NCBI GenBank assembly: GCA_963825865.1 | Contig: CAWGVG010000041.1 | Location: 1 to 30,429 of the forward strand | DNA from: an uncultured Nitrososphaeraceae archaeon | GTDB lineage: Archaea; Thermoproteota; Nitrososphaeria; Nitrososphaerales; Nitrososphaeraceae | Direction of reading: 5' to 3' | DNA: 30,429 bases | In this document: positions 5,965-19,434 of the stretch, piece by piece | How positions within the stretch are numbered: the first letter of the stretch is position 1 | How the letters are laid out: each line of letters opens with the position of its first letter | The notes under the pieces: generated by a model | Told to the model about the DNA's origin: nothing | The model's input: only the letters and a program-made list of their open reading frames with translations | Databases searched by the model: none | Program-made: the position numbers and the translations under genes

Positions 5965-6676
5965 ATGAAAAGTACGAGCTTTGTATTTTAGAAAGAGCTA
6001 CGATAACAAAATCCAGTTGCTCTCAGACCTGGTTGAAAAACTAAATAAAGCATTATCCACTGAAAATGCTTCAGCAGATAGAATAATATCAAGAATAGAT
6101 CAGACTCCGATAGAAGAAGTAAAACAAAGACTAAAGCAGCACTTGAAAGAAACAAATAATCAAAAAAGTAGGCTTAGAAGAATAATTACACGATTAGGAG
6201 GAAAGCCAACTGATGCTAAAGCAGATTTATCACTATCATTCGTATCTACTACGATGCCGAGGAGAAATAATCTTCCAAAGAATGTAAAATCAAAAACAGA
6301 GGATAACGGTCTAGAAAATTCTATGCCGGAAGAATATGAATTAGTGCAAATGAGGCGAGATTTCGCATTAAAACATGATGAATTGGTGGCCTACGATTCA
6401 CTGATCCGGGCAATGCAAATGACGGATACACCGCAACAGCATAAGAATATATCATTACTGGAAAAGAGTATGCAGGAAGAAGAATCAATGGCATATTGGT
6501 ACAAAATGCATACGCCTTTGATACTTGACAACCTATGGCCAAAGATGATTCATACTTCAATAAGACGTGGTCAAAACTTTCTTCTTAACCACATCGGTTC
6601 AAAGATTCCACTCATTATCATATATGCCGATCTTGTTGGCTCAACGAATATGAGCATGACCCTAGAAAATAGTTAG
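5965..6676 (+). pseudogene. Ferritin-like (DUF892/YciF) domain fused to the start of a class III adenylate/guanylate cyclase; 3' truncated
   Basis: ALSTENA, QHLKETNNQKSRL, LGGKP, ELVAY, EEESMA are YciF-like; IIIYADLVGSTNMS is the cyclase beta-1 motif; stops a few codons later. Likely ATG at 5965 with one extra T near 5985. Confidence 0.8.
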
Positions 6677-6825: not shown

Positions 6826-7638
6826 CTACTGTACATAACAAATATCAGTTATTGTTCTTGTCGTTTTTCTTATCATGTTTATACTGTTGCTGCTCGCTTT
6901 AGGTAGCACCAATATTTGGCCAACCATGTTTGGCATATGTACGTGGCAGGAGTAGTTTATGGTTCCAGGGTTGTTTGCTACAAATGATACAGTGTGGATT
7001 TGTCCTCTCATAAGTTCAAAGGTATCTACTCCGTCGACAGTAATGACATGGTGTGCACCTTGTACTCCTATGAAATGGAGTGTGACTTTATCGCCTTGGT
7101 TAACGACTATTTGATCTGGGGCAAATGTAAATGATTTAAAGTCCCAAGCTCCTACTTTATTTGGTTCTGTTATCCTGAATCCTCCTCCAGTTGGTATAGT
7201 AGAATTTACAGGAGGCTTCTCTGGTGGATGTGTTGGAGTATTCTGAGGACAAGTATCACATTTTACGCCAGCATTTACGTTTGTCATTCCATCAAGGTGT
7301 ACTGTATTTATCCAGAATTCCTTGCTAGTTGATTGGTTTGGGTTAATTGCTTTTAGTGCTGCTGCACTACTTGCTGCCCAGTCTGTACTCATTTGCTGCT
7401 GCTGCAGTCTTGTATCATTTGCTGTTTCAGTTGTTTTGCTTGTTCCAGATGGGTAGACTCCTTGAGCCATTACCTTCTGCAGGTTCTGGCCATTGTTGTT
7501 GATGCCCACTATCATAGCTGCTGCAACTACTGATGCAGCTATGATTGCCACAGCCATTAGCTGTGTTTGTTTTGAAGTTGTTGTTATTATTTTTTTTCGA
7601 TTCATGTTCTTCGATCTCTTATCTATCTTGGTTTTCAT
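6826..7638 (-). CDS. Secreted/membrane-anchored cupredoxin (type 1 blue copper) protein
   Basis: Hydrophobic signal, FTFAPDQIVVNQGDKVTL, GAHH, YSCHVHMPNM (Cys-His-Met ligand loop); intact. Confidence 0.9.
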   Translation of the reverse strand: MKTKIDKRSKNMNRKKIITTTSKQTQLMAVAIIAASVVAAAMIVGINNNGQNLQKVMAQGVYPSGTSKTTETANDTRLQQQQMSTDWAASSAAALKAINPNQSTSKEFWINTVHLDGMTNVNAGVKCDTCPQNTPTHPPEKPPVNSTIPTGGGFRITEPNKVGAWDFKSFTFAPDQIVVNQGDKVTLHFIGVQGAHHVITVDGVDTFELMRGQIHTVSFVANNPGTINYSCHVHMPNMVGQILVLPKASSNSINMIRKTTRTITDICYVQ

Positions 7639-7652
7639 ATAAGCAAGGAGAC

Positions 7653-7685
7653 AAATTCCATCTCTGAATTCCAGAAGTGGAATTC
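7653..7685. promoter_or_regulatory. Tripartite palindromic operator, copy 1
   Basis: Perfect GAATTCCA-gaag-TGGAATTC (7666-7685) plus a third half-site; 15 bp upstream of the cupredoxin ATG; near-identical to 8823-8855. Confidence 0.75.
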
Positions 7686-7865
7686 GTCTAATCTAACTAA
7701 AGCAAAAATAGTAAAAGTATAATCAAACGAGTTTAGGCATTTCGCAATCTTTGTTATAATGAGTGTTCCTTAGTAAATAAAGAAAGAAGAAAAACCCATC
7801 TTATTGCATCTGTAATCGTTAATATATTAAATACGAACTGCATTAACAAGAAATCAGGGAATAAT

Positions 7866-8052
7866 GTGATAGTTCAAAGCCAAAGCGCAAAGAAAGCAAT
7901 CCTAGTCGCTTTGGCTGATGAAGAAATGACTAAAATATTGGATTCTATCATGTATCATTCTAAATCCATTGTTGATATTACAAGGGAAAACAATATTCCC
8001 CATACTACATGTTATAGAAAAACCAAATGGCTACTTAACGAAGACTTATTAC
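7866..8052 (+). pseudogene. Archaeal ArsR-like winged HTH transcription regulator, 3' truncated
   Basis: ILVALADEEMTKILDSIMYHSKSIVDITRENNIPHTTCYRKTKWLLNEDLL; after this the ORF is only the antisense of the neighbouring gene (poly-Tyr). Confidence 0.8.
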
Positions 8053-8493
8053 TGCTACCGCTCCTTCTATACTACTACTATTATCATTATCTATACTACT
8101 ACTTTCAACCATATTTTTTCCGCTTTTTTCTGCATAATAAAATCTAAACCATACCATTATAGTGAAAAAAATAGCAGAGCCAACATGAATTTGCGAACCA
8201 ATATCCGGGGGCAAAACTGAAAATATAGCAATTCTATTACTCTCTATTATTTCTCCTAAAATGTAAACTGCAATAAATACGAATATTTGAAATTGAAAGT
8301 TTTTAATACTCTTGGATCGGATTGCAAGCCATACGAATATGACCAATGGAATCAAGGACAGAATGAGTGTAATATCACTCATAGAATGCAGAAAATCAGC
8401 GGAAGTACTATTACCAACATTGTTATTTTCAAATATATTTATCATGTCTTGAGTTCCTCCTGCTGTTGCTGTTGTTGGTTTTTTATCTTCCAC
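8035..8493 (-). CDS. Small integral membrane protein (about 3 TM)
   Basis: Three hydrophobic segments with embedded GEIIE and QIH; overlaps the end of the upstream membrane gene, suggesting an operon. Confidence 0.8.
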   Translation of the reverse strand: MEDKKPTTATAGGTQDMINIFENNNVGNSTSADFLHSMSDITLILSLIPLVIFVWLAIRSKSIKNFQFQIFVFIAVYILGEIIESNRIAIFSVLPPDIGSQIHVGSAIFFTIMVWFRFYYAEKSGKNMVESSSIDNDNSSSIEGAVAVISLR

Positions 8494-8773
8494 GTATTGA
8501 TAAGATATATTGCTCCAAAGAAAAGCAATGCCGCCATTGATAATGGTTCTAGGAATCCTTTTGCCAATAACCTAAAGCCAATAATTGCAGCAATGTGGTA
8601 GAAAACCTGCACTAAAATAAAACCTACAAGTACCATTGTTAATTTTCTAAAATAATTATTATTAGTTGTTGATACTCTTTCTTGATTTTAAAATAAAGTA
8701 AGCTGGAATTATAGGCAGCAATGAGATAAACAATAGCATCAATAAGGTTATAATAATATTGAGTTTGCAGCAT
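8442..8773 (-). pseudogene. Small integral membrane protein (about 3 TM), two +1 frameshifts
   Basis: Reconstruction: MLQTQYYYNLIDAIVYLIAA/IIPAYFILKSRKSINN/NNNYFRKLTMVLVGFILVQVFYHIAAIIGFRLLAKGFLEPLSMAALLFFGAIYLINTWK...; joins track ORFs 8662-8844 and 8442-8636. Confidence 0.7.
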
Positions 8774-8822
8774 TTTAAGACAATGCTATTATAATGATAT
8801 TCTACATTAAAAGTAGTTATAC

Positions 8823-8855
8823 GAATTCCACTTTTGGAATTCACACGTGAAATTC
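8823..8855. promoter_or_regulatory. Tripartite palindromic operator, copy 2
   Basis: GAATTCCA-cttt-TGGAATTCA-cacg-TGAAATTC between divergent starts at 8773(-) and 8900(+). Confidence 0.75.
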
Positions 8856-8899
8856 GTGTCTGTTTTTATTAGAGCAATAAAGCAATTCATAGAATAATA

Positions 8900-9290
8900 A
8901 TGAATAACATAGATAATCTGAATGAAGTATCAGAAATAAAAAATCAAATTGAGAAGCTACAGAAGAAATACCAAACACACCTTCCTAAGGTCGATCCCTA
9001 CCTTGTTTATGACTTGCTGTTACGACAGCAGAAAAATCCAGCGACTATGTATATGTATAACATAGAAGTGTTTACAAGACAGGGATTAGATGCAAATGCA
9101 GCCAAAGAATATGTATACAAAAAAAGCAGGCATGGTGCCATCTGTTTACGATAAGGGTACCCATTATGTAACAAATCAAAAGCTAACGTTAGAGATACTC
9201 AAGGAAATTTCTGATTGTGAAGAAGTATTACAAGTCAGTGGTGAATACACAGGCTGCTATGCGTCCACTAGTCCATCACATGAGTCTTAG
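8900..9290 (+). pseudogene. Conserved hypothetical protein, one frameshift near 9126
   Basis: ORFs 8900-9154 and 9090-9290 join: ...LPKVDPYLVYDLL...IEVFTRQG...YKK/GMVPSVYDKGTHYVTNQKLTLEILKEISD; paralogue at 9585. Confidence 0.8.
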
Positions 9291-9584: not shown

Positions 9585-9884
9585 ATGACAACGGATATAG
9601 ATTACTACTATAGTGATGGCAAAAGTGCGCCAATGTATACGGTAGAGGTATTTACAAAAGAGGAAATAGATTCAGAGGAAGCCAAAATGTATATAATTTA
9701 AAAAACAGGGATGGTACCGTCTATACATGATCATGGCACTCATTATGTAACAAATCAAAAGCTAATATTAGAAATACTCAAGGAAATATCTGATTGTGAA
9801 GATGTTTTAGAAGTTGCTGGTGAATATTCTGGTAGCTGTGAGTCTATAGGGTCGGTACATGAGAGTAGTGAGAAATATGAATAA
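9585..9884 (+). pseudogene. Paralogue of 8900-9290 with an internal stop
   Basis: MTTDIDYYYSDGKSAPMYTVEVFTKEEIDSEEAKMYII*KTGMVPSIHDHGTHYVTNQKLILEILKEISDCEDVLEVAGEY...; TAA at 9699. Confidence 0.8.
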
Positions 9885-10195: not shown

Positions 10196-10683
10196 TTATT
10201 TATTGACTACTTCAACTGTCCCTTTCATTGTATAAGGGTGATATGCACAATGATATGAGAATGTACCTGTCGTGGTTGGATTAAAAGATAGTTGGCCTGA
10301 ACCATTCGGAGATATATCATCACTTGATGGAAGGACGTCTGCTCCTGTATCTATAATTAGTTCATGTTTTGTATCTGTAGGGTTTTGAATCTTTATTACG
10401 TTATTGGCATTTGCGAAAACCTTTAACGTTGGGTTGTCTGCGCCATTACTACCGTTTATCCATCTGTAAACGCCAGATGTTACTTCCTTTACAGATAATT
10501 GAATTGCATTAGTCATGTTCTTGCTTGGAAAAGGAGTATTAGCAGTAGTAGTATTTTCCTTTTCTTGTGCAACTGCTGCTGGTATAATTGCATATAGTGA
10601 TATCCAAACAAATTAGATATCATGCCAAACAGCAATGCTGATGAGAGTACCTGAAGACAACAGTGGCGAGCCATTTTCTTCAT
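10196..10683 (-). CDS. Secreted cupredoxin (type 1 copper); signal-peptide region disrupted
   Basis: NPTL, KHELII, YHCAYHPYTMKG; the frame extends upstream of 10516 through ISLYAIIPAAVAQEK to a stop; probable ATG at 10683. Confidence 0.8.
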
Positions 10684-18640: not shown

Positions 18641-19434
18641 AAAGTTATTATGCAGTAGGTACAATAAATCATTTTTATATAATACTAGCAAGCTAAATGG
18701 TGAGTGGTCAAATAAGTATCACTTACAAGATGATTAATCATGCAACAAAGCACATCTTTTATTAAGCAATAATATGATTATTGCATAAACAGCTAATTTA
18801 TTCTAAATTTAAATTATTGATTTAATTATTTTTTTTAAATTCTCTGTATGAATATTCCTTTAGGATATGTCCAGAGGGAGATCTTCTTATTTTAAGTAGT
18901 CAAAGCTATAATCCTCATCCTCAAACTCGCATGATCTGTGTAAGAAGATGGAACGCAAAAGAATGCTAGTTCACTATAGTGGATTACCAGACTTAAGAAG
19001 CATCAAATCAGTGGTTTAGAGGTCCTGTTAAAGCTATGATACCTCTACCTTTAGTTTACATTTCCTACTATAGGAAGCTATAGAACTCATAATGGTAGAA
19101 TTACAGCTTATAATAACAATAATTGCCTGTTCAACATGATGTTTAATCCAGGGCAATTTGTCTGAACATTAAGATTATTTATTGAGCAGGAATAGTAAAG
19201 TACTTGCAATAGCAGTAAAAAGGGAGCTAGATTTAGTGAACCCATGCTCAGATCAACTATTGCCAGTAACACTTTTACTGAAGGGATTCGGGCAACAATC
19301 CTGTTACTGGAACAGCTGTTGTAACTCCAGACCCAGTCGTTTCAAATAAAACATATACTAGAGGACCCCCATCTCATCCTACAATAAGGAAAAAAGCTTT
19401 TACAAAGCCAATTTCACCTAAAATTGTTAAATAT

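Follow-up and report, generated by a model that had tools for sequence, protein, structure and literature searches.

A candidate operator array linked to a winged-helix regulator, a membrane-protein pair and exported cupredoxins in Nitrososphaeraceae archaea

Among the closest described systems is TFB-RF1 (PF1088) of Pyrococcus furiosus, a regulator that is co-encoded with PF1089, a small membrane protein of unknown function, and that controls a small autoregulated regulon through a palindrome lying a conserved distance ahead of a weak transcription factor B recognition element (BRE) and TATA box (PMC5937170). Here we describe an arrangement comparable to it in a stretch of 30,429 nucleotides (the window) from an uncultured Nitrososphaeraceae archaeon (contig CAWGVG010000041.1 of assembly GCA_963825865.1), in which two putative operator arrays accompany a winged helix-turn-helix (wHTH) regulator, two membrane proteins (M1 and M2) and an exported cupredoxin. 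The two systems are likened by description: TFB-RF1 uses a single TCTG-N5-CAGA site, has a partner with four transmembrane segments and targets an ABC transporter (PMC5937170), whereas window-type cassettes combine arrays of one to four units with a four-nucleotide (N4) spacer, a membrane pair of three plus three transmembrane helices (TM) and cupredoxin targets. The TRBM consensus of TFB-RF1, TCTG-N5-CAGA, is not matched by the unit found here.

Other described systems resemble single parts of the cassette. SdpI/SdpR of Bacillus subtilis is likewise free of a kinase and pairs a 3+3 TM protein, which also occurs in split 3-TM forms, with an ArsR-type regulator; SdpR, however, represses, and a peptide toxin serves as the ligand (PMC2910880). 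No SdpI-type family is among the matches listed for M1 and M2. The ethylene-binding domain of ETR1 is a 3-TM unit that works as a dimer and binds copper through two ligands one turn apart in helix II, Cys65 and His69 (PMC10266040). The His-x3-His of M1 may map onto these two residues, the register being our own reading; M1 differs in that it has no Cys (the first position is His in 51 rows and Gln in 10, and a His follows four residues on in 59 of 61) and neither a GAF nor a kinase domain, and M1/M2 would form a heterodimer or a fusion where ETR1 is a homodimer. CopR/CopT of Thermococcales and Sulfolobales share the copper context, and their activator site likewise lies between divergent promoters and immediately ahead of the BRE, yet CopR is an Lrp-type octamer with a TRASH metal domain and the motif TTNNCAWWWTGNNAA (PMC7830388), whereas the wHTH here has 117 residues and neither a TRASH domain nor a Cys motif.

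In Nitrososphaera viennensis a copper-limitation motif lies upstream of copper-related exported proteins, 35-70 nt before the start and sometimes doubled, but its consensus TTCSGSMTTTGWACYANT differs from the palindrome described here (PMC7785015). We rejected an identity of the two motifs: by eye, none of the upstream sequences listed in PMC7785015 has a two-unit array, and one has a partial likeness. Haloarchaeal pairs of a DUF7521 membrane protein and a regulator are also encoded by adjacent genes and are uncharacterised (bioRxiv 10.1101/2025.11.10.687552); clusters of DUF7521 and DUF5985 are Atlas neighbours of M1 at 0.81-0.85, which we take as a lead only, and neither family is among the Pfam families listed for M1 and M2. 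Archaeal sensor domains are covered by PMC5847659. We found no description of the operator or the cassette in the open-licence PMC and bioRxiv literature. The cassette is apparently an undescribed three-part, kinase-free regulatory system composed of unnamed families, and by analogy its geometry may be that of TFB-RF1/PF1089 and its logic that of SdpI/SdpR.

Operator arrays in the window and across the family

Array 1 (7653..7685) and array 2 (8823..8855), neither assigned to a strand, each consist of two overlapping palindromic units GAATTCCA-N4-TGGAATTC offset by 13 bp (unit scores of 26.6 and 15.2 bits for array 1, 26.1 and 19.0 bits for array 2). Their coordinates and letters, and the 2 mismatches in 25 half-site positions between them, were as given in a first-pass annotation made from the sequence alone, and its reading of the sites as possibly bound by two overlapping dimers fits the 13-bp stagger of one to four units; the second spacer, which it had described as different at all four positions, differs at three (GAGA versus CACG). 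The 20-bp palindrome has exact matches at 7666 and 8823, and with up to 3 mismatches allowed only 2 matches occur in the window (expected 0.31; 2 of 100 shuffles reached 2). The two sites are inverted copies, 77% alike over 53 nt, and the likeness continues to the TATA-like box. In nine orthologous loci the half-sites of array 1 are 94% identical, as against 72% for the adjoining intergenic DNA. In the genome to which the window belongs (G000; 4.98 Mb, 82% complete) the two-unit form occurs at 5 places only, all in diverged copies of the cassette (two on C41, two on C20 and one on C22).

Unseeded palindromic expectation maximisation on 78 regions upstream of M1, a set that included the C20 copy and left out the window's own, returned GAATTCCA-N4-TGGAATTC with a log-likelihood of 538.5 (24-31 for three shuffles). 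With a 4-nt spacer 56 of the 78 regions scored at least 14 bits, while other spacers from 1 to 8 nt reached this in at most 4 regions; over 160 distinct units the spacer carries 0.04-0.07 bits per position and the half-sites 0.6-2.2. In the 104 loci scanned there were 98 arrays of one to four units, mostly with a 13-bp step, compared with 1 in the reversed loci. They lay upstream of M1 (63), upstream of the wHTH gene (13) or elsewhere (22), and 91 were kept once overlapping and weak arrays had been removed. Both arrays persist at orthologous places across genera. The motif is thus conserved upstream of orthologues, and rather than being scattered independently of these genes, as the end of a miniature inverted-repeat transposable element (MITE) would be, it is linked to the wHTH/membrane-pair cassette and to cupredoxins. 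The usual gene order is M1, M2 and a convergent wHTH, with M1 and M2 fused in some genera.

M2 was found in 100 of 238 genomes of the family; two further families had it in 8 of 163 and in 1 of 2 genomes, respectively. The named records with the membrane gene are mostly Nitrososphaeraceae metagenome-assembled genomes. A single palindrome with at most 1 mismatch occurred in 13 of 36 genomes of the same family and in 0 of 24 others. Five genomes that have the array pattern and no M2 match were checked: two encode a diverged wHTH, immediately preceded by a site, and have a related membrane gene of 158 aa, one has weak paralogues only, and two have nothing. In five of six loci from family f13 the top-scoring site, beside the same genes, has a spacer of 5 nt, and the operator thus changes with lineage. 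Throughout these f13 loci (L157, L160, L163, L164, L165 and L167) wHTH, M1 and M2 form a single operon. Among three single-contig genomes of genus g15 the cassette wHTH is present in one, G113, and model strains may lack the system.

The putative regulator, the promoters and the membrane pair

In the window the wHTH gene (7866..8054, plus strand) encodes residues 1-63 only, a deletion at 8044 having taken the wing and the C-terminal helix. In the model of the intact, 117-aa regulator (predicted local distance difference test score, pLDDT, 87.9) the winged helix is extended by an additional pair of strands and by a helix at the C-terminus. Foldseek matched this model best to Phr of P. furiosus (2p4w; E = 1.4e-4, TM-score 0.67), followed by HlyU, NolR and CzrA, and as modelled the fold is of the ArsR/Phr winged-helix type. 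By sequence, the search for solved relatives gave weak AspA matches only, and a weak match to the SdpR family was seen in 2 of 43 rows. Invariant residues concentrate in the recognition helix and wing. We are confident, short of certainty, that the wHTH binds the arrays. Classification as a metal-sensing member of ArsR/SmtB was rejected, since the fold fits but a conserved Cys/His site is absent: no Cys/His metal motif is conserved in the 43 rows, Cys never exceeds 12 of them at any position, and the single common His (35 of 43) lies at the recognition helix, where it alternates with Tyr. The wHTH has no TRASH domain or Cop box and so is not of the CopR/CopT type.

TATA-like boxes recognised from the sequence start 11 nt beyond array 1 in the cupredoxin promoter (7635..7642, minus strand) and, on the two sides of array 2, 11 nt beyond it in the M1-M2 promoter (8805..8812, minus strand) and 10 nt beyond it in the promoter of open reading frame (ORF) 8900 (8865..8872, plus strand); these are the three flanks of the window with the spacing. 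Across the family, 70 of 162 distinct flanks have a TATA-like hexamer that begins 9-14 nt past the array end, with a peak at 10-12 nt (3-13% in other intervals), and the 7 nt ahead of the TATA box, at the BRE position, are purine-poor (purine fraction 0.26-0.51). The spacing is present in 29 of 53 flanks that face M1 and in 1 of 14 that face the wHTH gene. Of the up to four transcription units first proposed as being under control, the cupredoxin, the membrane pair and ORF 8900 are therefore probable, whereas the wHTH gene is not, and the arrays probably serve three units.

The palindrome of the tested activator TFB-RF1 lies directly upstream of a weak BRE, whereas repressor sites lie within or downstream of the promoter (PMC5937170), and the site of CopR, also a tested activator, lies directly upstream of the BRE (PMC7830388). 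Because the position of the arrays matches that of these two activators, it would, by analogy, probably serve activation rather than repression. The alternative that survives best takes the wHTH as a repressor: its outer half-site would crowd the BRE, and M1/M2 would relieve the repression by sequestering the wHTH at the membrane, as SdpI does SdpR (PMC2910880). Many of the ArsR/SmtB-like fold neighbours are repressors, the weak SdpR family match points the same way, and with the array ending 9-11 nt before the TATA box a footprint could reach the BRE. The arrays, however, lie entirely upstream of the TATA box at a fixed distance from it, with a purine-poor BRE position, as in the two tested activators, and we consider the repressor reading unlikely.

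M1 (8442..8773, minus strand) carries the motifs His/Gln-x2-Tyr-His and Glu-Pro-x-Ser, and M2 (8035..8445, minus strand), the reading frame of which is open in the window, carries Gln-x-Gln, Glu, His-x3-Met and Arg. Each protein has three TM, and charge bias predicts the N-terminus outside and the C-terminus inside; in M1-M2 fusions there is an added hydrophobic linker of varying strength. The conserved polar residues in the outer half are His/Gln47, Tyr50, His51 (59 of 61 rows) and the Glu-Pro-x-Ser of M1, together with Glu56 (58 of 65), His77 (64 of 65) and Met81 of M2, while Gln42, Gln44, Arg91 (65 of 65) and a basic helix of M2 face the cytoplasm. A model of the fused protein (pLDDT 78.8, linker unresolved) had no Foldseek match at E 0.001; VIA-align placed it near adhesion GPCRs (best Z 13.0, root-mean-square deviation 4.2, 180 residues aligned), a range that is common for helical bundles.

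The most frequent Pfam match of M1 (61 rows, E ≤ 0.1) was ETR1_N (17 of 61, best E 2.1e-5), followed by ABC2_membrane_5 (15 of 61). One ETR1_N alignment scored 15.2 bits against a cut-off of 27, a single fused M1-M2 row of 22 matched this family, and searches for it found nothing above the cut-off in 3 or in 301 genomes, the controls being blank as well in the set of 3 (E 0.001). No solved relative of M1 was found by sequence. Comparison of M1 with M2 by hhalign (probability 36.7%, E 3.6e-4) is suggestive of homology between them; a 109-row alignment (A5) in which the M1 and M2 halves had collapsed onto each other was left out. Longer M1 fusions were not seen among 8000 candidates, which is weak evidence.

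In locus L226 (1221-2468; genome G481, which belongs to another family of the phylum) genes resembling those of M1 and M2 are directly followed by a gene for an ATPase, apparently KaiC-like from its Walker A motif, in place of the wHTH. In L148 (1231-2109) and in P0073 a helical domain of about 97 aa is encoded after M1/M2 or fused to them; it is reminiscent of NitrOD/Death-like domains, but neither Pfam nor NCBIfam returned such a match.

The occurrence of M1/M2 beside other output partners in L148 and L226 favours a sensor module over a transporter and suggests that the module is portable. With no Cys/His metal motif conserved in the wHTH, sensing likely falls to the membrane pair, and there is good reason to expect that the pair acts as the sensor for the wHTH; whether it does so with a metal cofactor we regard as evenly balanced, haem being an alternative cofactor that the weak cytochrome b561 matches of M2 (9 of 65 rows) would allow. 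According to the next alternative the operator is real and the wHTH senses a cytoplasmic cue, while M1/M2 are mere targets that serve the cupredoxin in metal uptake, as a chaperone or in electron transfer. It would account for the array ahead of M1-M2 in most loci, for the cytochrome b561 matches, for two source names that label M1 relatives as haem-binding membrane subunits, and for those M1/M2 copies that have no wHTH within the flank examined. Set against it are the wHTH, in which no ligand or metal motif is conserved outside the DNA-binding core, the conserved cytoplasmic face of M2, and the loci in which the pair adjoins signalling-type partners with no cupredoxin in the DNA examined there; we give this reading little weight.

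Probable target genes and the state of the window copy

The exported type-1 cupredoxin (6826..7605, minus strand) has a signal anchor and a His ... Cys-x2-His-x3-Met loop and matches Pfam Cupredoxin_1 below the cut-off (E 1.7e-5). Its start is most likely at 7605, the ORF start at 7638 falling within the TATA box; it lies 47 nt beyond array 1, in relatives of that type mostly 34-48 nt, and the gene is the likely main target. Among 75 other ORFs that are first downstream of an array, 53 were scanned and 22 that were short, cut or doubtful were dropped by eye; Cupredoxin_1 matched 42 of the 53 at E ≤ 5e-4, many under the curated cut-off, and the type-1 copper loop Cys-x2-His-x-Met is present in 45 of all 75. 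In genomes with several copies, further arrays precede unlinked genes for exported or small membrane proteins. Non-cupredoxin genes beside arrays encode DUF7482 exported proteins, an RTX-repeat protein and a family of small His-containing membrane proteins (L018:7084-8763, L206:667-1146, L192:535-1260, L195:1663-2040 and L212:1606-2022). Contigs of relatives from RNA runs span the cupredoxin, wHTH and M2 genes, with word shares under 0.1.

ORF 8900 (8900..9290, plus strand), a lineage-specific target, encodes a conserved cytoplasmic hypothetical protein that is frameshifted near 9126 in the window and intact, with 128 aa, in L042; it matched no Pfam or NCBIfam family. A direct repeat, 77% identical between 9121-9284 and 9700-9863, marks a second, broken paralogue of it, and a relative of the family adjoins a paralogous wHTH in L144. 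A second cupredoxin of the window (10196-10516, minus strand), above the Pfam cut-off, is of a type that is common behind arrays in relatives and has no array here.

Compared with intact relatives (88-90% identical), the window has lost 209-224 bp at 8044, carries extra single bases in M1 near 8714 and 8664 together with a 23-bp leader loss, and is frameshifted at 9126. The wHTH gene is thus truncated and M1 is frameshifted: the window cassette is a pseudogenised remnant. Soil contigs from two runs, of which one may not be independent of the window, carry the intact continuation of the wHTH gene as loose ends; in the relatives' contigs the extra base at 8714 is missing in both runs and that at 8664 in one. 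The single-base errors may stem from the assembly, as frameshifts abound across the window, whereas the long wHTH deletion is more likely real decay. G000 has three wHTH matches, all partial, and an intact copy could lie in its unassembled part.

The window and G000 contain many frameshifted genes, and many segments are 75-97% identical to segments on other contigs despite a reported contamination of 2.77%; assembly error, strain mixing and mass duplication with decay are alternative explanations. A 73-bp element (18680-18752), not a tRNA by ARAGORN, has 97-100% identical copies on many contigs and is possibly a dispersed repeat. Positions 5981-6676 of the window (plus strand) encode a ferritin-like DUF892 protein with a C-terminus that is apparently fused to an unrelated fragment.

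Proposed circuit and its significance

On balance we favour a kinase-free circuit in which a membrane sensor acts through a wHTH activator on cupredoxin targets. The arrays would be the operators of the adjacent ArsR/Phr-fold wHTH, several dimers of which would bind with a stagger of 13 bp directly upstream of a weak BRE and TATA box. The bound wHTH would activate one or both of the flanking promoters, probably by aiding the loading of TFB and TBP, and the regulon would comprise exported blue-copper proteins, a few other envelope genes and, as feedback, the M1-M2 operon. Paired or fused, the two membrane proteins would form a bundle of 3+3 or 3+1+3 helices that has a His/Glu/Met pocket on its outer side and a conserved face toward the cytoplasm; the bundle would sense an external cue, most likely via a bound metal (copper or haem), and govern the wHTH through direct contact. 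A more specific version, which we put forward as speculation and think improbable, sees M1/M2 as a split 3+3 receptor-like sensor, distantly akin to the ethylene-binding domain, which holds a metal (copper or haem) on its His residues, responds to NO, O2, an alkene or a similar gas or redox cue, docks a soluble wHTH activator directly, without a kinase, to induce the blue-copper electron carriers, and is rewired elsewhere to a KaiC-like ATPase or a helical adaptor.

Several observations weigh against the favoured circuit. The TATA spacing is present in just 43% of flanks, and in the window-type arrangement the wHTH gene itself is without it (the 1 of 14 above). The joint occurrence of array pattern and M2 in 86 of the 238 family genomes (M2 only in 14, array only in 16, neither in 122; a reversed control pattern matches 10) speaks for the circuit, but it is overstated, since the arrays on which the pattern was built are cassette-linked and come from this very collection, and since related genomes are not independent; the 86 include three unpublished genomes (G130, G131 and G196). 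The array pattern is thus missing from 14 of the 100 genomes with M2. Only 7 of the 13 relatives with a single palindrome have it linked to a cassette or a cupredoxin; the other six matches, like one on C33 of G000, are in unrelated DNA and were put down to chance. Gln replaces the first His of M1 in 10 of 61 rows, the window's clade among them, and the family and fold matches of M1 and M2 are weak and mixed.

That an unlinked factor binds the palindromes instead, or that these are repeats of a structural or mobile kind (an RNA hairpin, a MITE end or a recent duplication), is very improbable: the richness of G000 in diverged duplicated segments, the weak wHTH paralogues of cassette-free genomes and the 16 array-only genomes would fit it, but the arms do not covary (0.650 paired versus 0.657 ± 0.010 shuffled; 10 of 160 units perfect), Rfam gave no match, the operator score stays at 10 bits or less in 169 windows at loci of paralogous wHTHs, and no dispersed copies exist, the five arrays of G000 all lying in cassette copies and the arrays being kept at orthologous places across genera. 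What stands of the regulon first proposed is the conserved motif and its linkage to the cassette and to cupredoxins; its up to four controlled units are reduced to a probable three, and the window copy is a decayed one.

Soil ammonia-oxidising archaea are thought to use cupredoxins instead of c-type cytochromes. The regulation of copper genes in these archaea is described as an open question in PMC7785015, and the present finding adds a precisely defined operator, candidates for the activator and for the sensor, and a set of cupredoxins as targets. The candidate parts are small proteins amenable to testing in vitro, and the M1 protein named by NCBI for Nitrosotalea sinensis (P0168) suggests a named organism for follow-up. 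The cassette can moreover be taken as a model of the membrane partner of TFB-RF1-type activators, which is so far unexplained, and it hints at a sensor module, as yet unnamed, that is coupled to more than one kind of output in archaea.

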